A stretch of DNA of 37,210 nt from a virus (IMGVR_UViG_2671180673_000011:1-37210), one strand, 5' to 3'; shown: positions 2,621 to 37,210, counted from the first letter of the stretch. The notes: generated by a model from the letters alone, not told the origin. A program made the numbers and translations.

Positions 2621-2732
2621 AACTGAAGTTGCCCTGAAAATGAAATTTTTTTGCACAACCGCAGAACTTTTCCGCAGGGCATCAGTCTTAATTAGTGCCA
2701 CTGCTTTTCTTTGATGTCCCCATTTTGTGGAG

Positions 2733-2776
2733 CCCATCAACCCCGCCATTTCGGTTCAAGGTTGATGGGTTTTTTG
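2733..2776 (+). terminator. rho-independent terminator
   Basis: Perfect 10-bp stem CCCATCAACC (2733-2742) / GGTTGATGGG (2760-2769) followed by TTTTTTG, about 110 nt downstream of ybjL. Confidence 0.5.
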
Positions 2777-2855
2777 TTGCCTGAAATTTATGCCTTTTAA
2801 AATCATGATGTTAGAAGCACTGTTTTTTATCGATGGCGACAAAATGGCGGCAGCG

Positions 2856-3074
2856 TCAAAGAGAGAGCGCCACCTGTCCTGATTTCATTGGATGCGGCTG
2901 AACCGGATTTGACTCTTTTGGCGTTGCAATCGAACGAACAAAAGTTTCATGGGTAACAAAAGTATGGCTGCAGTTAATATTCTGGCACTGGTTGTAACGC
3001 TCTTTGGTCAATGAAGATACCTGAAAACTGCTGCGAGTATGGGCGGCACTTCCACACAGTGGGCAAATCATCAT
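2856..3074 (-). CDS. ogr: Ogr/Delta-family zinc-finger late-gene activator
   Basis: 72-aa product from the internal ATG (MICPLCGSAAHTRSS...KERYNQCQNINCSHTF) with the Cys4 pattern and length of P2 Ogr; the track ORF extends 11 codons upstream. Confidence 0.85.
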   Translation of the reverse strand: MMICPLCGSAAHTRSSFQVSSLTKERYNQCQNINCSHTFVTHETFVRSIATPKESNPVQPHPMKSGQVALSL

Positions 3075-3164
3075 TTTTCGAGTTCTCCCCATTTTTGCTA
3101 AATTCACAATAATGATACCGCATTATTCCATTTTGCAAACTTAAAAGTTCTCCATTGCGAAGAA

Positions 3165-4265
3165 TCATTCCATTTCGAAATCATCAATCCTCACTTCAAG
3201 CTCCAGACTGGTCGTAAAACCGTTATCCGGGCTGACGGTATGCGTCAGAGTCGTAATGGTCCATTCCGCATCATCTATCGGCTGTTTAAAGCCACTGACT
3301 TTCACTGGCATTTCCGTGTAGAGATCTGCCCGACCTTCCGCCAGTTGTAGCGAGAATGACGCAACGCCGCGTTGCAGGCGTTCCCACTGCATTTTCGCCG
3401 CTCGTTCGGCGTTGCTCCGGTTGGCATAAGTGCGATTAAGTACCAGCACGTTTTCATCCGTACCCACCAGGTAATCGCCCTGCTTCGCTTCCGGCTCTTT
3501 CTTCTGCTTCTTAGTCCTGCGCTTACGCTTCACCGTGGTGCTTTCTTTCTTCGAGGGTTCGCGAGTATGCAACCAGCTGGCAATTACGCCCGTGTAAGCT
3601 CCGCGATCTGCCAGGGTAAAGCGGTGACTGTCGCCGTCCTTACGTGTGATAGTGATCACCGGCAGTGGTTTACCGCTGGCACTTTTACCCTGTCCCTGTC
3701 GGATGAATAACAGATTGCCATTTTTCACTGACGCGATAGCACCGTACTGGCGCGCCAGCCGCATCAGAAAACTGCCGTCACTCTCATTAGTCTGGTCTAT
3801 ATGTTCCACGGGCTTATCCGACAGGTCTTTACCCAGTGCCATCTTCAGCTTGTGACGCGCGGCTATTTCCTTGACCACTTCCCCGACAGTGGTCTTGTGC
3901 CACGACTTTTCACGGCGGGTATTCAGCGTCTCACGAAAATCAGCACTTCGCGCCCGAATAGTCAGGCGGTCCGGTGCGCCAGTGTGTTCAATCTCGTCCA
4001 CCGTGAATGCCCCTTTCGGGAAAAGCGGCTGCCCCTTCCAGCCCAGCGCCAGCGTAATGACCGCACCACGGCGCGGCAGCACGATTTTTCCGTCAGCGTC
4101 GTCCAGCTCCAGATCAAGCTGGTCCGCTTCAAAGCCCCGGTTATCCGTCAGCGTAAGCCCCATCAGGCGGTTGTCCAGCACAGTGGTTATATCCCTGCCC
4201 TCAATACTGATGCTGAATGCGGGAGTTTTGTTGCCTTTGTTAAGCAGTTCAGAGCTGAAATTCAC
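3165..4265 (-). CDS. D: tail protein D
   Basis: 366 aa; N-terminus MNFSSELLNKGNKTPAFSISIEGRDIT closely parallels P2 gpD; lysine-rich central linker. Confidence 0.85.
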   Translation of the reverse strand: MNFSSELLNKGNKTPAFSISIEGRDITTVLDNRLMGLTLTDNRGFEADQLDLELDDADGKIVLPRRGAVITLALGWKGQPLFPKGAFTVDEIEHTGAPDRLTIRARSADFRETLNTRREKSWHKTTVGEVVKEIAARHKLKMALGKDLSDKPVEHIDQTNESDGSFLMRLARQYGAIASVKNGNLLFIRQGQGKSASGKPLPVITITRKDGDSHRFTLADRGAYTGVIASWLHTREPSKKESTTVKRKRRTKKQKKEPEAKQGDYLVGTDENVLVLNRTYANRSNAERAAKMQWERLQRGVASFSLQLAEGRADLYTEMPVKVSGFKQPIDDAEWTITTLTHTVSPDNGFTTSLELEVRIDDFEME

Positions 4266-25174: not shown

Positions 25175-25915
25175 TTACTCAATAGGTTCAAACTCATCTT
25201 GAGGAATCAGCGTCGATTGACAGGCTTGGCTTAGTACCCCTGATAATTTACATAATAACCGATAGTTATGAGGAGCATCATCGCTAATCTTTTCGACCGT
25301 TAAAGTGATTGATTTTGGATCATCCAATAACATCTTCTTGATGTCATTACTTAAATACCTAGGGCAGTAACCAACGATTTCAGCTGGTTTATCTGCACGA
25401 ACGACAACAGCATCCCCATCGTATTCATTTTGAAGATCCAAGCAAAGACGCAAAATTTGCCCCGGTTTCAATTCAGATACACGAGCATTAGCTAAGCTAT
25501 TCAAGTAACCAAGTCCATGTAAGAAGAAAAAATGCTCAAAGTTACCATCAGAATCAAAATCAATTTTTTTGAAAATCTGCAGCTGATCAGTGCTTCGTAA
25601 GCCTCCCGAGCGAGCAAGAATATCGATAGGATTTACCTTATCTTCTTCAAATCCAAGCCATTTAATGAAACTCGGATACTCTGGACGTCTCGGTGATAAA
25701 AGGCGATTTTTAAAAAGAGGAAACAATTCTTCCGATACATAAGTTTCACGAACATCACTCATGCCGCTAAACTTTGTAAATTTAGAAGATTTAAGAGCAC
25801 CTTTGGTATACCTGAAAACATACCCCGATTTGCGCTCTTGCAAGTTACCAACAACATGCCAGTCTCTGGTATCTGGTGCCTGCCATGCGACGTAAACGGA
25901 GTTTGTATTAGTCAT
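25175..25915 (-). CDS. HipS-like / HIRAN-domain fusion protein (putative partner of the HipA-like kinase)
   Basis: N-terminal LFPLFKNRLLSP and DILARSGGL resemble HipA N-subdomain-1 (FFDNLLPDSP...); C-terminal LRLCLDLQNEYDGDAVVVRADKPAEIVGYCPRYL fits the HIRAN signature; ATGA overlap with the upstream kinase gene. Confidence 0.6.
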   Translation of the reverse strand: MTNTNSVYVAWQAPDTRDWHVVGNLQERKSGYVFRYTKGALKSSKFTKFSGMSDVRETYVSEELFPLFKNRLLSPRRPEYPSFIKWLGFEEDKVNPIDILARSGGLRSTDQLQIFKKIDFDSDGNFEHFFFLHGLGYLNSLANARVSELKPGQILRLCLDLQNEYDGDAVVVRADKPAEIVGYCPRYLSNDIKKMLLDDPKSITLTVEKISDDAPHNYRLLCKLSGVLSQACQSTLIPQDEFEPIE

Positions 25916-26826
25916 TCTAGTAACCTTCTGCGATTTTCCATTACCATTAACGTTGCAAATCTACGTGCACTGTCGGATATACACGATGAAGGCACTTGGT
26001 TAAACACATCTGTAATGGAATCTTCTGTTAAAACGCTCAACTTACCTAACCAATGGTCGCGAGCGGCAACTCTCCCTTCAACTGCATGTTGAAATGCTTC
26101 AACAGTCAGCAAGGGCTTTTTATCAGTTTTTGCTTTGAATAGCTCAGAGCGAGCTTTTCTTACAAAACATGGGATTTGTCGATTTTTATCTTTAGTATTA
26201 AGCCGTTCGTTACGCTCATCATCTAACATCTCCCTTCCTAAACTAGCGGCATGATCGTATGTTGGACACAAAAACTGCTCACCAGTTTCATTGTTAAGCA
26301 TGATTGCCCAATTTTCATGGTGGCGATCTTGATTACTCACAAGTGCATCGAGCATCAAATATCCACAAAATACATCTGCTGCATTTAGCCCGGTTAGATC
26401 ATATACACTCGGAGGAGGCTTGATAGATTCCCTATCTAAACAACCCAAGACCCTTGTGACAGTGTGTTCTCTGACCCTTACCGGCTTTTCCCCGGCTTGT
26501 AAAGGCCCAGGATAATCGAATGTCGAACTGTGAAGCACTTCATTTCCCATTACCATCCGGAAACCAGATGGAATGATATTCTGAGTCACCACACCGAATC
26601 GACCATTGTATCGCGCCAAATCATAGCTAGCATGTGGAATGTTAAGCAAATGACATAACTCAGCAGCACACTTTTCAGACCAATGCTCGCCAGTACCTGG
26701 CCTAGAGTACTTAAACAACTGCAAATTTACAGTGTCATCGGAGAAATAGAACCAAAACTTCTCTTTGGTTCCTAACTGTTCAAGATCGTTAGCTACGGGG
26801 CTAAGCTCTACCAATTGGTATGGCAT
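25912..26826 (-). CDS. HipA-like (HipT-type core) protein kinase
   Basis: 304 aa; GTKEKFWF (cf. HipA Gly-rich loop VAGAQEK), catalytic loop SNQDRHHENWAIM (cf. HipA GATDGHAKNF), CPTYD (cf. HipA TPFYD); no HipA N-subdomain-1. Confidence 0.7.
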   Translation of the reverse strand: MPYQLVELSPVANDLEQLGTKEKFWFYFSDDTVNLQLFKYSRPGTGEHWSEKCAAELCHLLNIPHASYDLARYNGRFGVVTQNIIPSGFRMVMGNEVLHSSTFDYPGPLQAGEKPVRVREHTVTRVLGCLDRESIKPPPSVYDLTGLNAADVFCGYLMLDALVSNQDRHHENWAIMLNNETGEQFLCPTYDHAASLGREMLDDERNERLNTKDKNRQIPCFVRKARSELFKAKTDKKPLLTVEAFQHAVEGRVAARDHWLGKLSVLTEDSITDVFNQVPSSCISDSARRFATLMVMENRRRLLE

Positions 26827-26978
26827 CTGACATCCCTGTTTAGCGGATTATGAATAAGTTAGGTTCCATTTTATCCAAACATTGTCAAATACCCTAAGAT
26901 TTATTAGATGATAGAGCGATACTGTATGTATGTCCAGCAATCAAATCAATATATAACTCTTATATGGCTTAACGCGCG

Positions 26979-26997
26979 CTCGTATCCCCGCCACGCC
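26979..26997 (-). other. candidate cohesive-end (cos) site
   Basis: Minus strand reads GGCGTGGCGGGGATACGAG; first 13 nt equal the 186 cos as I recall it (GGCGTGGCGGGGAAAGCAT). Confidence 0.4.
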
Positions 26998-27042
26998 TGC
27001 CCGCTTTATGTAGTGGTTTTCATGCACCTGCATGATCTACGC

Positions 27043-27066
27043 AAAAGCCCGCCAGTTCTGGCGGGC
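27043..27066 (-). terminator. rho-independent terminator after the DinI/Tum-like operon
   Basis: GCCCGCC/GGCGGGC stem with a T-run on the minus strand. Confidence 0.45.
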
Positions 27067-27201
27067 CTTAGCAAAAACGATCCTCAAACGATCATGCGAT
27101 CTCATGCGGCATAGACATGCACTACAGAGCTAACGCCTCGCAAGGGCTCGTTGTTCAACCTTGCTGACGCCAGAAGCAAGTTCAGACGCCAGCAACGTTT
27201 C

Positions 27202-27435
27202 TTAATGCAGCCAGCTGTCGTCTTCCCACACCTTCTGCATAATTTTCATCACTTGTTTTCTTTCTTCGTCCAGTTGCAATCCGGTAAGTTCCACACCGTT
27301 AGAGCTACCTTTGCGGATACGAATTACCGTTTTGGGATACAGAGGGCGCAGATTGCGGTAAAGCTCGGATTCAAGAGCGTCCAGGGTAGACTGGCTAATC
27401 TTCTGCTCTTTATCGATCATTATTTCAATGCGCAT
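27202..27435 (-). CDS. DinI-family protein (C-terminal part of a 186 Tum-like antirepressor)
   Basis: MRIEIMIDKEQ...DALESEL...WEDDSWLH aligns along its length with E. coli DinI; GAGGTGA Shine-Dalgarno 5 nt before ATG 27435. Confidence 0.8.
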   Translation of the reverse strand: MRIEIMIDKEQKISQSTLDALESELYRNLRPLYPKTVIRIRKGSSNGVELTGLQLDEERKQVMKIMQKVWEDDSWLH

Positions 27436-27445
27436 AAAAGTCACC

Positions 27446-27634
27446 TCAGCTGATGACATCCATTGAGCGGTTGTATTCGTGGGTTCTGATTTTTGCCATG
27501 AGTTCATCAGTCAATTCAGAAACCCACTGCAGAGCCAGCCCCTTCTCTTCATCACTACACTCACTAGCCGCTACAAGCTTAAGAAAAAAATCAATGCGCT
27601 GGAGCTTCAAAGACTCCAAAAAATAGTCCTGCAT
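27446..27634 (-). CDS. small SOS-regulated protein, possibly the N-terminal part of a split Tum-like antirepressor
   Basis: 62 aa from ATG 27634 with AGGAGG Shine-Dalgarno; LexA box about 45 bp upstream; the 3' end overlaps the DinI-frame ORF in another frame. Confidence 0.5.
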   Translation of the reverse strand: MQDYFLESLKLQRIDFFLKLVAASECSDEEKGLALQWVSELTDELMAKIRTHEYNRSMDVIS

Positions 27635-27675
27635 CTTTCCTCCTATGACACCACACGCAATACTGTATGCATAAC

Positions 27676-27695
27676 CACTGTTTATATTTACAGTA
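27676..27695. promoter_or_regulatory. LexA (SOS) box
   Basis: cACTGTTTATATTTACAGTA, a perfect CTGT-N8-ACAG with AT-rich spacer. Confidence 0.65.
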
Positions 27696-27787
27696 TATAA
27701 TAATCTTACTGATGTAAAACGTTTTTTTACGTTCATCAGCCTGATATGCCTGGTATTATTAAGAGCACGAATTGTTAACCCGCGTAA

Positions 27788-30160
27788 TTAATACAGGTTC
27801 CGCCACTGATCATCTTCCTGCAAACGCTGGTTCCGATAGAAGATACGCAGGCCTGCTCCTGACGGAATACTGCCTCCGCGAAGGAGTAAATCGACCTCTT
27901 TCTCGCTGCCATCAAATCCTCTGGACTTCAGCTCATACACGAGCTGCAGTCGCTGATGGTCTGTAATTCGCTGTTTGTAGTCTTTACGCCGTTTCGGTTT
28001 CACCAGGCGTAACCTTGCTGCCAGTTCCCGGCGCTCTTTTTTGCTCATACTGTGCAGGTAATCGTGCAACTCCTTGTCATCCATGCTGGTAATGTCCGTT
28101 CTGGGGTTCCCATCAGCTGATTTATCTTTCTCCTGTTGGTTCAAATTTTCAGCAAGGGGACAGTTATTGCCACGAGTCCAAGGGGCGCAAGCGCCCTGGT
28201 CGGCTGCCGCCTCCTGAACGTCAACGGCCTTACGAACCATTTTCCACTTCACTGCATGAGTGCAGATCTTGCCCTCTGCAATGGGTGACCAGATGCCATA
28301 AATACGAATACCGTGATCGCCATAGGCGGTTGGCTCTTCGTTGATTTCATAAGCGGTTCTGATGAGGTGATATTTGCGGGGAACCAGTACGCCGCCCTGC
28401 TTCATGATGTAGGTGGCAAAACAACCAGCATCAGCAGCAGCCAGGATGGCATCAAGGCGCGGGTTATCCAGTACCGGCGCACCTGCTTTTTTGTCACCCT
28501 GTTGCCTTGCCGCCTGACCAGCCAGCAATCGCAGTTCACGGTAAGCCTGACGCCCCGGAATGCCAAAGAAGCGGAATTGCTGAACACGATGCAGAGACGC
28601 CCAGGCATTAACGTATTCAGCGTTATCACGCAGGGATTTACCCGTTTCCTTACTGATCTCGCCAGCCAAACCACGCCCGTCAATATTCTTACTGATATAT
28701 TTCGCAATGTAGCTTGTCGGCGTTCCTTTGCGCGGGTTTATCAGCTCAGACTTAAAGCGTGGCCCCGTGTTATTGCCCAGCTCCTCGCGGTCTTCACGGA
28801 TGGCAAACTTACGCAACAATGCAGTAATGGCGCGGCGGTCTTTTTTGCGCATGAAACACAACAGGTGCCAGTGAACTGTGCCGTCATGATGCGGCTCAGC
28901 CACCCGCACGCCATACCAGCGCAACCCGGCTTTGTGCATAGCCTTACGAAATGCAGCAAACATGCCGACCAGATAATCGCTGCTTTGTCTTACTGTCGCG
29001 TTGGTCCAGGTCGGGTTTGGCCTGCCGTTATTTAGCGTGGAATGGAAACGTGACGGACAGGTGATGGTGTAGAAAACGGCGCAGTCACCACGCATTTCCG
29101 CGATAAGCTCCAGGCCTTTAACACAGGCCATCATCTCATTGCGGCGATGCGCCGGGTTGCTGCTGCTGGCGTTTACCACATCCTCCATGTCCAGCGTGTC
29201 GCCGTCTTCGTTCACCAGTTCATGAGAACGGAAAAACTCCAGCGACTTACGGCGCTGCTCACGTTTATGCATCACGGCTTCATAGCTGACATAAGGAGAT
29301 GCTTTTTTGCTGACCAGGCAGACAGCGCGCAACTGCTCTTCCCGCCATTCGCAACGCATCTTCCATAATTTCCGGTACCACCAGTCGGCGCACAACATAC
29401 GCGCCAGCGAACCCGGAATGAGTTCATAGGGCACGGGTTTACGGCGGTTTCTTTTCCGACGGAGTTGCTCAAACGCAGGCGGGATAACATCCAGACGCAG
29501 GGTTTCCGCTGCCACCTTTTCCCATGTCTTGCGGATTTCTTCTGGCTTAACGTCATCGGTGGCATACAAATCACCACAAGCTGCATCAAGGCACATGCTC
29601 ATATGCGCAGCGACAAGGGTAGACAGGCGCTTCACCTGATCCTGACTCATTTCAGGCAGGATAAGCAGGCCATCCAGCCCTTCATGGCTTGCCATAAAGC
29701 GAAAAGAAGCGGATAGCTGACTGTCGCGTACATGCTCCAGTCGTTCCAGACATGGCTTAATCGTCTCACGCAAATAGCGGGAATAAGCCTTTGGCCTGCC
29801 CAGGCTGCTGAAGTATTCAATACGTTGCATCAGCGGCTTGCTGATATGGGAAGGCTGGGCATTGACGTCCGCCAGAATGACCATATCTGGATTAAAACGC
29901 TGCTGCTCATGCGCCAGCTTTGCCCGACTAATGAGCTTATCCTGCTCCATTTCGCGCTGGACAGGATCACGGGATTCATTAAAGAAATAACGCTCCCAGA
30001 CCTGATCACTCAGTACCTCGCGGCGCAGGTGTTCCTGTTCGTTATCGGCAGCGTACAGAGCGATCAGGTTTGAAAGCGCAGAAACTGAAGATTGCTCTTC
30101 TGTCCCTACGTAAGGATTGATTGCTTTTTTCTCAGCATTCCAGGAATAGCTGTAGTTCAT
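27788..30160 (-). CDS. A: replication initiation endonuclease A
   Basis: Large ORF of P2 gpA type; start placed at ATG 30160 (MNYSYSWN) with GGAG upstream, overlapping the upstream stop as TAATG. Confidence 0.85.
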
Positions 30161-30990
30161 TACGCAATCTCCAGTTCGAGCTGTGATGGCTGCAAACCAT
30201 TCGACAGCCAATCAGAAACTGAAGGTGGGCGAACAGCTTCAATTGCACCTTTTAAAATTGCGCAACGGTTTTTCAGAATGACAGCTTTCAGCTCCTTTTC
30301 CGTCAGATTGCGCGAATACTCAGCCTCCTGAATAGCCCGCGTAAGCTCAGGATATTTGCTATTAAATTTGGGGACATTGCAGGCAAGATTTGTACTGTCG
30401 GCAGTCGCCAGTGGGTAATTTCCCAACACACGACCGTCAAGCATGCGCAAACCATGAACAGCTGTTTTGAAATTGTGTCGGCAATAAATTGCTTCAAAAG
30501 CGTCCTGCATACGACGATGCCAGTGCGCAGTTCTGATAGCCGCATATTCACCAGACGATCCAAAGCAGACACGAGGCCATTCACGACATAGCTCGATAAG
30601 CCGATCGATTGACTCGTGCAGATGCCAGACGGGAGTTGCCTTCCCGTAGAACATTTTCGGAACTTCGTTTATCAGGGCATCATTGCCACGTTCACCGCCG
30701 TCCACAACATCAGGAATGACAAAAAAAGCGACCTTAGGATGGTGGTAATAGTTCAGGAGCCATTTATAAAAATCACTCCAGTTAATTTTTAGCCCACGCA
30801 CCCATGCAGAAAATGCGCCGTTATCAATGCCGACGACCTGAGCGTGCTGAATGGACGCCGCAATCTGATCTGGTCGTACATAGGAGACGAAAGCGCCAGC
30901 TCCGCTCACCGCAATACGATGAACGTCGCCAGCACTTCCCCAGACAGGCGTCCCATGGAAATGATGAATTCCGTGGTGCATTTCTTTCAC
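30160..30990 (-). CDS. hypothetical protein coupled to Dam; possible TGT/DpdA-like fold (speculative)
   Basis: 276 aa, GTG start overlapping the Dam stop; HG-TPV and GIDNGAFS loosely recall tRNA-guanine transglycosylase motifs, but no Zn-binding Cys cluster. Confidence 0.5.
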
Positions 30991-33737: not shown

Positions 33738-34334
33738 ATGTCAACATCAAAGTACCCAAATGAGATCAAAATAAATCCCAATAAAGGTGGTAAGGCTGCG
33801 ATTGAGCGATTAGTCGAAGCTTATGGCTTTACGACACGACAGGCTTTAGCTGATCACTTGGAAGTATCAAAAAGCACTCTGGCGAACAGGTATTTGCGGG
33901 ATACGTTTCCTGCAGACTGGATAATCCAATGTGCTCTTGAAACAGGAACCTCACTGAAATGGTTAACCACCGGGCAAGGCCTTAAGCAAAGCTCGCTGAC
34001 AGCAGCTACAGAAGAGCTTGCCAAGTTTCGCCTTACCGCAGGCAAAATGATTGAAGATGGTTCATATGTCTTCGATTCATCATTTCTTCCTGCAAATCTT
34101 TCATCACCAATTGTTATTCAGGATGGGCTCGTCACATACATTTGTGATCAAAAATTTTCTGAAGTACTTGATGGGCACTGGTTAATCAACATCGACGGAA
34201 CCTATTCCATTCGAAAAATCACAAAGCTTCCAAAAGGTATGATTAAAATTACAAGTACAGAGAATAGCTTTGAATGTGCATTTTCTGATATTGAAGTAGT
34301 TGCTTGTATAAGAAGTACAATAGTTTCAAATTAA
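33738..34334 (+). CDS. cI: CI immunity repressor (186 type)
   Basis: 198 aa with N-terminal HTH (FTTRQALADHLEVSKSTLANRY) and C-terminal domain, upstream of int. Confidence 0.8.
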   Translation: MSTSKYPNEIKINPNKGGKAAIERLVEAYGFTTRQALADHLEVSKSTLANRYLRDTFPADWIIQCALETGTSLKWLTTGQGLKQSSLTAATEELAKFRLTAGKMIEDGSYVFDSSFLPANLSSPIVIQDGLVTYICDQKFSEVLDGHWLINIDGTYSIRKITKLPKGMIKITSTENSFECAFSDIEVVACIRSTIVSN

Positions 34335-34354: not shown

Positions 34355-36031
34355 ATGAATTCATTTTCCATCGTTATATTCTTATTAGCATTTCTCGCCC
34401 CCATTCTAGCTGTAATATTATTTAAGCAAAGCAAAAAACATAAAGCGGCTATAAATACCTTGACAGCTAACAACATAGCCCTTTCCAACCAACTGAAAGA
34501 AAATCAAGAAGAATTAGCACAGACTGTACGAGATCTATCAGAGCTTGAAGGACGAGCTGCGCCATTATGGCAATACGCAGAATTGCACAGCGCAGTGATG
34601 GAAGCAGAGAATAAGATAAAAAATGCAGACTCAATAGCCAGGCAAAAAATAGAAGAAGCCCAAATAAAGGCTGCTAAGACAGTAAACGAAGCAAATTATC
34701 AAGCTCAGATAAAAATAAGCAACGCTAATAGCGAAGCTATAGCAATTACTAAAGACGCTCGCGATGCACGCCTGAAAGCTAAAGAACGTCTTGATAATGC
34801 CAATAGTAAAGCAAATGAGCTGATCTCAAATGCTAATGACAATGCAGTGAAAATTATTTCCGATGCAGAAGAAAGAGCAAAAGAGATTGCTGGTTCAGCA
34901 TATGAAGCTAAAGAGTTTGCAGAAAAATATGAAGCAGTTGCCAAATCAATGAAAAATAAAATTGAAGGTTATGGTGATGAATGGATCATCCCTAACCGTA
35001 GCGTTCTCGATGAATTGGCAGAAAATTATGAGTTTACAGATGCAGGTAAGGAATTACAAAAAGCCAGGGAGTTAACAAAATCATTAATAAAAACTAATAA
35101 AGCTGCTTCGTGTGATTATGTTGAACAAAACAGGCGTAATACTGCTATCAACTTTGTTTTAGATGCCTTCAATGGAAGAGTTGACAGTATTTTATCAAAA
35201 GTCAAACACCACAATTTTGGAAAACTTTCCCAAGAGATAAAAGATGCGTTTCAACTTGTAAATTACAATGGTTCTGCCTTTAGGTCCGCAAAAATAAGTG
35301 ACATCTATCTTCAAGCTCGACTCAACGAGCTAAAATGGGGAGTTGCAGTTAATGAAATTATGCTCGAAGAAAAAGAAGAGCAAAGAAGGATTAAAGAACA
35401 ACTTCGTGAAGAGGAAAGAGCTCGTAGGGAGTATGAAAAAGCGATAAAAGAAGCTGAAAAAGAAGAGAAAGCTATTCAGCAAGCTATAAATAAAGCAACA
35501 AAAGAGCTTATGCTTGCAAATGAAGAACAACGCTTAGCTTTAGAGCAAAAAATAGCTGAACTACAGTTAAAATATGAAGAAGCTGAAGCTAAAAACCAAC
35601 GAGCTATTTCTATGGCTCAACAAACTAGATCAGGCCACGTTTATATAATTAGTAATATTGGCTCATTTGGCGAAGATGTATATAAAATTGGAATGACACG
35701 CCGCCTTGAACCACTTGATCGTGTTCGTGAACTCGGTGATGCTAGTGTTCCTTTTTCGTTCGATGTTCATGCGATGATTTATAGTGATGATGCACCATCA
35801 TTAGAAAATCATCTGCATAAAGTCTTCAACGAAAAACAGGTCAATAAAATTAACTCACGAAAAGAGTTTTTCAACGTAAATATTAAAGAAATTAAGTCTG
35901 TTATTGAAGATATGAACATCAACGCACAATGGACAATGTTTGCGGAAGCGAAAGAATATAGAGAGTCACTGGCGATTGAGCAAGAGCGCAAAGCAGCAAC
36001 TTCCGCCAACGATGAACTGCATGTTGCTTAG
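34355..36031 (+). CDS. membrane-anchored coiled-coil protein with C-terminal T5orf172/MUG113-like (GIY-YIG-like) domain
   Basis: 558 aa; N-terminal TM helix (IVIFLLAFLAPILAVILF), about 350 aa of K/E/A-rich coiled coil, then GHVYIISNIGSFGEDVYKIGMTRRLEPLDRVREL...LHKVF...EFFNV; strongly AT-rich; AAAGGA Shine-Dalgarno. Confidence 0.7.
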   Translation: MNSFSIVIFLLAFLAPILAVILFKQSKKHKAAINTLTANNIALSNQLKENQEELAQTVRDLSELEGRAAPLWQYAELHSAVMEAENKIKNADSIARQKIEEAQIKAAKTVNEANYQAQIKISNANSEAIAITKDARDARLKAKERLDNANSKANELISNANDNAVKIISDAEERAKEIAGSAYEAKEFAEKYEAVAKSMKNKIEGYGDEWIIPNRSVLDELAENYEFTDAGKELQKARELTKSLIKTNKAASCDYVEQNRRNTAINFVLDAFNGRVDSILSKVKHHNFGKLSQEIKDAFQLVNYNGSAFRSAKISDIYLQARLNELKWGVAVNEIMLEEKEEQRRIKEQLREEERARREYEKAIKEAEKEEKAIQQAINKATKELMLANEEQRLALEQKIAELQLKYEEAEAKNQRAISMAQQTRSGHVYIISNIGSFGEDVYKIGMTRRLEPLDRVRELGDASVPFSFDVHAMIYSDDAPSLENHLHKVFNEKQVNKINSRKEFFNVNIKEIKSVIEDMNINAQWTMFAEAKEYRESLAIEQERKAATSANDELHVA

Positions 36032-36114: not shown

Positions 36115-36939
36115 ATGGCAGTACGAAAACTCACCACAGGAAAATGGCTTTGCGAATGTTACCCCGCCGGACGTAGTGGACGTCGTGTGCGTAAACAATT
36201 CGCCACCAAAGGCGAAGCTCTGGCTTTTGAGCGTCACACGATGGAAGAAACCGAAGCAAAGCCCTGGCTGGGTGAATCAGTGGATCGTCGAACACTGAAA
36301 GACGTGGTTGAACTATGGTTCAAACTACATGGTAAATCTCTGACAGCTGGGCAGCATGTCTATGACAAATTGCTGTTGATGGTTGACGCTCTGGGCAATC
36401 CTCTTGCAACCGATCTCACCTCTAAAATGTTTGCCCACTATCGAGATAAACGCCTGACAGGCGAGATCTACTTCAGCGAGAAATGGAAGAAAGGAGCAAG
36501 CCCGGTCACCATTAACCTGGAGCAAAGCTATCTAAGTAGTGTTTTTAGCGAACTATCCCGTCTGGGCGAATGGTCGTATCCGAACCCACTGGAGAACATG
36601 CGAAAATTCACCATCGCAGAAAAAGAGATGGCATGGCTTACCCATGAGCAGATTGTTGAATTGCTGGCTGATTGCAAACGTCAGGACCCAATTCTGGCAC
36701 TGGTAGTTAAGATATGCTTAAGCACAGGCGCACGCTGGCGTGAAGCCGTAAATCTTACTCGCTCACAGGTGACCAAATACCGAATTACCTTTGTCAGAAC
36801 GAAGTAGAAGAAAAACAGAAGCATCCCTATCAGTAAAGAGCTTTACGAAGAGATCATGGCGCTTGATGGGTTCAATTTCTTCACAGACTGCTATTTTCAA
36901 TTTTTATCAGTGATGGAAAAAACGTCTATCGTGCTCCCT

Positions 36940-36940
<1 letters not shown>
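36115..36940 (+). pseudogene. int: P2/186-type tyrosine integrase, interrupted by in-frame TAG and 3' end lost at contig end
   Basis: MAVRKLTTGKWLCECYPAGRSGRRVRKQFATKGEALAFE closely matches 186 Int; in-frame amber at 36805-36807; frame continues (KKNRSIPISKELYEEIMALDGFNFFTDCY...LPRG) until the sequence turns into poly-C. Confidence 0.8.

Positions 36941-37210
<270 letters not shown>

Follow-up and report, generated by a model that had tools for sequence, protein, structure and literature searches.

The window, the whole 37,210-nt stretch of viral DNA analysed here (IMGVR_UViG_2671180673_000011:1-37210), very probably carries a two-gene SOS operon that is intact, repressed by LexA and equivalent to the phage 186 tum gene split into tumA and tumB, the prophage being of the Fels-2/186-like (Peduoviridae) kind; we put the probability of this reading at roughly 0.88. 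Judged from sequence, the structural features of a 186-type Tum SOS induction module appear to be present: the locus, the operator, both parts of Tum, two cistrons to encode them and a CI repressor. The two-gene arrangement is a known feature with a near-identical precedent in Fels-2, so that the importance of the assignment lies mainly in annotation and the understanding of the 186/Fels-2 switch is unchanged. It makes tumA the gene that probably triggers SOS induction in a prophage family found in about one fifth of complete E. coli genomes, as well as in Klebsiella, Salmonella and Yersinia phages, and naming the gene shows which P2-like prophages should respond to DNA-damaging antibiotics by induction.

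Organization of the operon and its promoter

The two genes lie on the minus strand directly 3′ of the gene for a gpA-type replicase, where the early region ends, and form their own transcription unit. The synteny of the tum locus with gene A is the same in 186, PSP3 and Fels-2. The features of the locus are as follows.

27788-30211, minus strand: gpA-type replicase, 807 aa (Pfam Phage_GPA, E 8e-128)
27713-27718, minus strand: TTTACA, the putative -35 hexamer of the tum promoter, which corresponds to p95 in 186; a 17-nt spacer and then TACTGT follow
27676-27695, minus strand: LexA box 1 (distal), TACTGTAAATATAAACAGTG, matching 17/20 consensus positions and overlapping the presumed -10
27661-27680, minus strand: LexA box 2 (proximal, imperfect), CAGTGGTTATGCATACAGTA, matching 14/20 consensus positions by hand count
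27639-27644, minus strand: Shine-Dalgarno sequence AGGAGG of tumA, by direct reading and kept in relatives
27446-27634, minus strand: tumA, 62 aa (189 nt, ATG at 27634, TGA ending at 27446), homologue of the N-terminal (antirepressor) part of 186 Tum
27442-27447, minus strand: GAGGTG, the tumB Shine-Dalgarno sequence, which shares bases with the TGA of tumA
27202-27435, minus strand: tumB, 77 aa (234 nt), DinI-family, counterpart of the 186 Tum C-terminal half and of the short product that 186 makes from an internal start
27157-27199, minus strand: long hairpin directly 3′ of the tumB stop, lacking a U tract (RNA fold)
27043-27069, minus strand: GC-rich hairpin with an 11-bp stem, then UUUU (RNA fold)

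Read along the minus strand, the order is thus TTTACA, 17 nt, TACTGTAAATATAAACAGTG, AGGAGG, the ATG at 27634, tumA, GAGGTG, the ATG at 27435 and tumB. The TTTACA hexamer and its spacing are kept in Fels-2, SopEPhi, ST437phi4.1 and Yp_MLG42, and the spacer sequence varies. The annotated -10 of p95 in 186 consists of the first six bases of the LexA site, and the same holds for TACTGT in the window. A consensus promoter scan did not call the tum promoter, because TACTGT matches TATAAT at just three of six positions. Some gene callers propose a 96-aa ORF from the ATG at 27736, which would run through the promoter and the LexA boxes and has no Shine-Dalgarno sequence; this candidate was rejected, the extension being unconserved, with 17-42 open codons of unrelated sequence at this place in relatives.

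Within the operon, the sole match of the promoter and terminator scan was a weak 6-bp hairpin (GTCATC/GGTGAC) at 27440-27457 (minus strand), which spans the tumA stop and the tumB Shine-Dalgarno sequence and could couple tumB translation to tumA termination. It is probably unconserved, since the junction sequence differs in SopEPhi, ST437 and MLG42. What relatives do have is a purine-rich GGGG/AGGG element within the 10-13 nt that separate tumA from tumB.

The 176-nt tail 3′ of the operon folds with a z-score of -3.6 taken as a whole. The hairpin at 27157-27199 occupies the position of t95a, a partial terminator in 186, and by analogy may act as one here. The GC-rich hairpin at 27043-27069 is likely the intrinsic terminator that closes the two-gene operon; it was missed by a simple terminator scan because its U tract is short. 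An Rfam search of 26800-27800 gave no match. The genes that come next have a separate promoter-like site and encode defence-type cargo, with no homologue of 186 orf97.

A double LexA operator of the colicin type

The original prediction started from a perfect LexA box (CTGT-N8-ACAG) at 27678-27693. The sequence there is indeed CTGTAAATATAAACAG, the sole CTGT-N8-ACAG in the window. Occurrence of the bare motif is within chance (0.47 expected, with at least one in 36 of 100 shuffles) and its count is weak on its own; it was therefore replaced by a search with the 20-nt LexA consensus and by an assessment of conservation. The consensus TACTGTATATATATACAGTA was matched once in the window, at 27676-27695 with three mismatches, and in none of 100 shuffles. 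Its CTGT and ACAG bases are invariant across six phage promoters, and a LexA box was found in the upstream regions of all nine relatives, 40-65 nt ahead of the start codon. A box also stands at the position equivalent to box 1 in 186 (annotated 'LexA, putative'), PSP3, ESSI2_ev015 and Cronobacter ESSI-2. A LexA operator that overlaps the promoter, as a 186-type Tum module should have, thus seems to be in place.

A second, overlapping LexA box (27661-27680) had been overlooked. Its 16-mer core shares one base with the core of box 1 at a CAGTGG junction, and CAGTGG...TACAGT is invariant in all six Fels-2-type promoters, the window included. When these six promoters were aligned, every box-defining base was invariant and the flanks varied.

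This arrangement resembles the double overlapping SOS boxes of colicin genes. The 35-nt operator of the window (27661-27695) can be aligned with those of the colicin N and klebicin-like genes with no gaps, and the pattern TACTGTA.ATA.AA.CAGTGGTTAT....ACAGTA is almost base-for-base that of these promoters. A 50-nt query with the Fels-2 operator matched >1,100 plasmid records, mostly of small and mobilizable plasmids; in the two records inspected, colicin N and a gene for a colicin-like tRNase bacteriocin come right after the match (TACTGTATATAAAACCAGTGGTTATATGTACAGT). The likeness has its limits: the boxes control bacteriocin genes on the plasmids but a prophage antirepressor gene in the window, and the spacing from -35 to box differs. 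Two LexA dimers are reported to bind at such double overlapping boxes of colicin genes, for tight repression (PMC2994835). Given the resemblance of the operators, the tum promoter is by analogy probably held off by two LexA dimers as well. A colicin-type double operator at the tum promoter would be a modest addition to a known feature; a literature search for tumA and tumB by name and for the operator string found nothing useful.

TumA and TumB correspond to the two parts of 186 Tum

The 62-aa ORF had been described as lying about 45 bp downstream of the LexA box, with a strong Shine-Dalgarno sequence; the measured distance from the box at 27678-27693 to the tumA ATG is 43 nt, and the Shine-Dalgarno sequence is AGGAGG. 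The protein is 98.4% identical to Fels-2 STM2728 and to its RE2010 counterpart. Many Klebsiella phages and vB_EcoM-813R9 encode it without a single substitution (100% identity), and identity to the versions in SopEPhi, SEN8, ST13-OXA48phi12.1, ST437-OXA245phi4.1 and Yersinia MLG42 is 84-89%. In phage and RefSeq records the product is labelled 'hypothetical protein' and once 'levan regulatory domain protein'.

Homology of TumA to 186 Tum is seen by profiles alone, since a pairwise BLASTP of the 62-aa protein against Tum gave no alignment. A family profile built from 31 diverse relatives matched Tum residues 5-48 with 35.5 bits (E 1.7e-9), as compared with 8.5 bits for the best of 4,000 shuffled controls. 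Independent agreement came from PHROG: TumA belongs to phrog_698 (E 3.6e-38), and the N-terminus of 186 Tum matches phrog_1993, phrog_8554 and phrog_698, the last at residues 7-44. PSP3 TumA is a member of phrog_1993 that scores weakly (3.9 bits) against the TumA family profile and is linked to it via phrog_1993/698. An exhaustive single-sequence HMMER search of 1.84 billion representatives with TumA recovered 66 relatives, of which almost every one is a stand-alone protein with 52-104 aa, and reached no fused Tum-like protein among these representatives. TumA matched no family in Pfam or NCBIfam, and PHROG labels its family 'unknown function'.

The AlphaFold model of TumA is a two-helix hairpin (helices 2-23 and 28-61, pLDDT 87). 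A Foldseek search of the PDB with this model found nothing at E <= 0.001; the best hits had E > 1 and were generic helical hairpins. Many distant members of the family carry a conserved glycine-rich C-terminal tail, ...KNPQxGGxSGGGxx(F/L)Q (e.g. alignment rows P0147, P0152, P0155, P0172 and P0181), which is absent from TumA of the window and of Fels-2.

The second ORF had been called DinI-like and placed in another frame, and both points were borne out. Its frame is +1 relative to tumA, and its product matches Pfam DinI (PF06183) over profile positions 1-63 of 63 (E 6.6e-23, 81.3 bits, gathering cut-off 24.2). Against the NCBIfam equivalog for chromosomal DinI it scored 42.7, under the cut-off of 111, so that TumB is a member of the DinI family rather than a DinI orthologue. 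TumB aligns without gaps to residues 71-145 of 186 Tum (41% identity, E 3e-24), and the alignment starts at the residue, 71, which is the annotated internal GTG start of the 186 'truncated Tum'; phrog_189 was matched at positions 71-148. The protein is 100% identical to its Fels-2 counterpart and has the same length as PSP3 TumB (77 aa), to which it is visibly very similar when the translations are read side by side. A search of PDB sequences with 186 Tum matched DinI itself (1GHH) alone.

Some relatives do without the second gene. In the Escherichia phage ESSI2_ev015 (locus 1201-1413) and in Cronobacter ESSI-2 (locus 1201-1420, approximate end), a LexA-boxed tumA homologue of 70-74 aa has no DinI-like gene after it, and the portal region comes directly next. 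The DinI part is therefore dispensable for such modules. Deletion of the dinI homologues of Gifsy had no significant effect (Lemire 2011).

The CI repressor as the presumed target of TumA

33738-34334, plus strand: cI, 186-type immunity repressor and presumed TumA target (Pfam Phage_CI_repr, E 8e-32; Phage_CI_C, E 4e-27)

The immunity region of the window is of the 186 type, with CII (CP76) and Fil encoded near cI on the opposite strand. Together with the conserved LexA operator and the homologue of the Tum N-terminus, this supports, at the level of sequence, the earlier view that this prophage, unlike P2, has the wiring for SOS induction. The window CI shares 33% identity with that of 186 and about 44% with that of RE2010, a Fels-2-like phage.

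Among phages with identical TumA, CI identity is 42-50% overall, 69-78% in the N-terminal helix-turn-helix domain and 31-36% in the C-terminal one. In a comparison of 11 phages, the identity of TumA correlated with that of the CI N-terminal domain (Spearman 0.85) and much less with that of the C-terminal domain (0.32); this co-variation is no more than suggestive, because the compared pairs are not phylogenetically independent. It suggests that TumA may contact the DNA-binding domain of CI and would, like the double operator, add modestly to what is known. A further step, which we consider possible but doubtful, is that TumA is a broad-range antirepressor which recognises CI repressors through their N-terminal helix-turn-helix domain, a part conserved in repressors that otherwise diverge. 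If this were true, a single TumA made under SOS could also induce P2/186-like prophages of other immunity in the same cell, and the colicin-grade double LexA operator would hold the trigger especially tight.

Two cistrons or one interrupted gene

The original prediction offered two explanations for the pair of ORFs, a frameshifted tum or a two-gene variant, and the relatives favour the second. A 901-nt query across the region matched 56 phage records at full or near-full coverage. The two-ORF layout was found in Fels-2, SopEPhi, RE2010, 4LV2017, ST13-OXA48phi12.1, ST437-OXA245phi4.1, Yersinia MLG42 and vB_EcoM-813R9, which are intact, named phages of several Peduoviridae genera, and the genes measure 189 and 234 nt in every annotated case. 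The 499-nt module is present in 1,125 of 5,426 complete E. coli genomes (100% identical in one), and among the E. coli matches listed the annotation is always that of two genes, 'hypothetical protein' and 'DinI-like family protein'. The distance from the tumA stop to the tumB start, and with it the frame, differs among relatives.

Window, 813R9 and Fels-2: spacer of 10 nt, tumB in frame +1 relative to tumA
SopEPhi and ST437phi4.1: spacer of 11 nt, tumB in frame +2 relative to tumA
Yp_MLG42: spacer of 12 nt, tumB in frame 0 relative to tumA
ST13phi12.1: spacer of 13 nt, tumB in frame +1 relative to tumA

The relative frame thus varies because the spacer varies from 10 to 13 nt, and the proteins stay fixed at 62 and 77 residues. 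In the window the DinI frame is open upstream as far as an ATG at 27507 (a 101-aa ORF) and overlaps the first ORF, as had been predicted. The open stretch ahead of the tumB ATG amounts to 25, 14, 19 or 4 codons of unrelated sequence; since neither its length nor its sequence is conserved, it is a by-product and does not code. On this evidence tumA and tumB are independent cistrons, each with its own Shine-Dalgarno sequence and ATG. Both genes are under purifying selection, with dN/dS values of 0.06-0.08 for tumA and 0.06-0.09 for tumB (Nei-Gojobori, against four relatives, pS 0.45-0.67). Neither frame disruption with respect to intact orthologues nor relaxed selection, the marks of a frameshifted pseudogene, was found: the structure is the same and dN/dS is 0.06-0.09.

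Just one relative has a module that really looks damaged or mis-sequenced. In NC_049342.1 (Escherichia phage 500465-1, locus 2665-3297) there are local frame disruptions in both genes; tumA reads EERGWLCSGV instead of EEKGLALQWV, tumB stops after four codons, and the neighbouring replication gene is broken by IS elements.

Alternative explanations

For the window itself, a frameshifted tum, in which a one-base indel (e.g. in the A5 run at 27490-27494) has split a 186-like 146-aa gene through inactivation or mis-sequencing, would account for two ORFs in different frames and for a DinI frame that is open back to 27507. It would also fit their summed length: 27634 to 27202 is 433 nt, in line with the estimate of about 144 codons and close to the 146 aa of 186 Tum, whose C-terminus is DinI-like as had been noted. 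The contig end is moreover of low quality (poly-C from about 36940). The A5 run does exist, but it holds no indel. An identical layout in many independently sequenced intact phages and in more than 1,000 E. coli genomes is just the observation that the original prediction had named as refuting a frameshift. The constant lengths despite changing frames, the placement of tumB behind its own Shine-Dalgarno sequence and ATG at a conserved position, the lack of conservation in the overlap, the strong selection on both genes and the recurrence of the 499-nt region without a mismatch in an independent complete genome all argue the same way, and a frameshifted tum, left with very little probability, is rejected. 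Programmed +1 ribosomal frameshifting within the 27446-27507 overlap (e.g. at A-AAA-A), which would make a fused TumA-TumB beside the separate products, seems equally improbable. The tumB frame of the window is the one required, both frames stay open for about 60 nt, the A5 run among them, and 186 makes long and short products from one gene; yet among close relatives the frame relation is +1, +2 or 0, the overlap closes after 4-19 codons in some of them, and the peptides that would serve as linkers are unrelated. No +1 shift signal of a known kind was seen, and ESSI-2-type phages have tumA without any tumB.

A two-gene variant, the form already published for PSP3 (tumA/tumB) and by Lemire 2011, thus accounts best for the gene structure, and what is left to weigh is the function of the first gene. 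The operon might be SOS-regulated and its 62-aa protein still not be the inducer of this prophage, having another SOS role or acting on another repressor, with induction by another route. All libraries do label the TumA family as of unknown function, and the same TumA sequence occurs beside CI proteins that are only 42-50% identical overall. However, TumA has profile homology to the Tum N-terminus, lies in strict synteny with 186 tum and diverges in step with the CI N-terminal domain. The published statement on PSP3 also argues for an inducer, as does the Fels-2-dependent lethality of a lexA null mutation given in the title of Bunny, Liu & Roth 2002, and we regard a TumA that is not the inducer as unlikely.

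A model for induction

In 186, SOS derepression of the LexA-regulated promoter p95 yields Tum, which reversibly sequesters CI and derepresses pR (PMC7708051; Lemire 2011). By analogy with 186, PSP3 and Fels-2, the tumA-tumB operon could work as follows. In an undamaged lysogen LexA, probably as two dimers, would occupy the double overlapping operator over the -10 and keep the promoter off. DNA damage would activate RecA, leading to self-cleavage of LexA and to transcription of tumA-tumB. TumA, a predicted 62-aa helical hairpin, would then bind the 186-type CI, probably via its N-terminal DNA-binding domain, and keep it off its operators, so that the early lytic promoter would be reversibly derepressed. 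TumB, translated from its own ribosome-binding site, may modulate the RecA/SOS signal rather than act on CI.

Comparison with known systems

The split of tum is a described feature, on account of the PSP3 annotation and of the statement of Lemire 2011 that tum of Fels-2 and PSP3 is split in two. The same paper reports, as a personal communication, that the upstream gene of PSP3 has antirepressor activity, and it is from this that the antirepressor role proposed for tumA is taken by analogy.

Fels-2 of Salmonella Typhimurium LT2 (STM2728/STM2726.1) has the same 189 + 10 + 234-nt layout after gpA and the same double LexA operator, save for substitutions in the box 2 spacer. Downstream it has a 732-nt gene where 186 has the 732-nt orf97 (compared by position and length), whereas the window has a HipA-like/HIRAN pair. 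In PSP3 two cistrons likewise follow a LexA box after gene A, and they are annotated as 'similar to 5′ end 186 tum; UV induction of prophage' (tumA) and 'similar to dinI and 3′ end of 186 tum' (tumB). The PSP3 genes are in the same frame, with the stop codon and 3 nt between them, and behind a single LexA box, whereas those of the window are in different frames and behind two; TumA itself is only weakly similar (phrog_1993 in PSP3, phrog_698 in the window). Phage 186 has the same locus, a LexA-repressed promoter and a CI target of the same type. There, however, the two parts of Tum are fused in one 146-aa ORF with a linker of about 22 residues, a single LexA box is annotated, and orf97 lies downstream. 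The 186 record also lists shorter products from internal starts, of which the GTG one, 'truncated Tum - modulates SOS induction', starts where tumB starts.

Outside the P2/186-like phages, the Gifsy/Fels-1 antirepressors GfoA, GftA and FsoA offer a parallel, since a small antirepressor and a DinI homologue are likewise encoded in one LexA-controlled operon, and the repressor is inactivated by binding, not cleavage (Lemire 2011). In these lambdoid phages, however, the gene order is reversed (dinI first) and the antirepressor and repressor families are unrelated to those of the window.

Other features of the window

The integrase gene (start at 36115) has an in-frame TAG at 36805-36807; a related E. 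coli prophage encodes Gly at this position (GG where the window has TA). The integrase reading frame is otherwise intact beyond the TAG. This may be either a genuine amber codon, which would make the prophage excision-defective, or a sequencing error near the contig end. Because of the TAG, this copy of the prophage may not excise even with a working switch. The last ~270 bases of the window (36940-37210) are almost pure poly-C with scattered other bases, which looks like a sequencing or assembly artefact, and the window therefore ends inside int, short of the attachment site.

Between cI and int, at 34355-36031 (plus strand), lies a gene for a 558-aa protein with DUF4041 and T5orf172/MUG113 domains (match to the PADLOC defence model PD-Lambda-1, E 1e-119), which is an insertion at this place; all that some related E. 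coli prophages have here is a small YdcA-family gene. The region 25175-26826 (minus strand), which lies between the portal gene and tumB, encodes a HipA-like kinase (304 aa; PADLOC PDC-M03A, E 2e-122; weak Pfam HipA_C) and, in an overlapping gene, a HIRAN-domain protein (246 aa; PDC-M03B, E 7e-93), which together are a candidate anti-phage defence pair. They occupy the position of orf97 in 186, and other relatives have other cargo there (TIR, Hypoth_Ymh and ATP-binding proteins).
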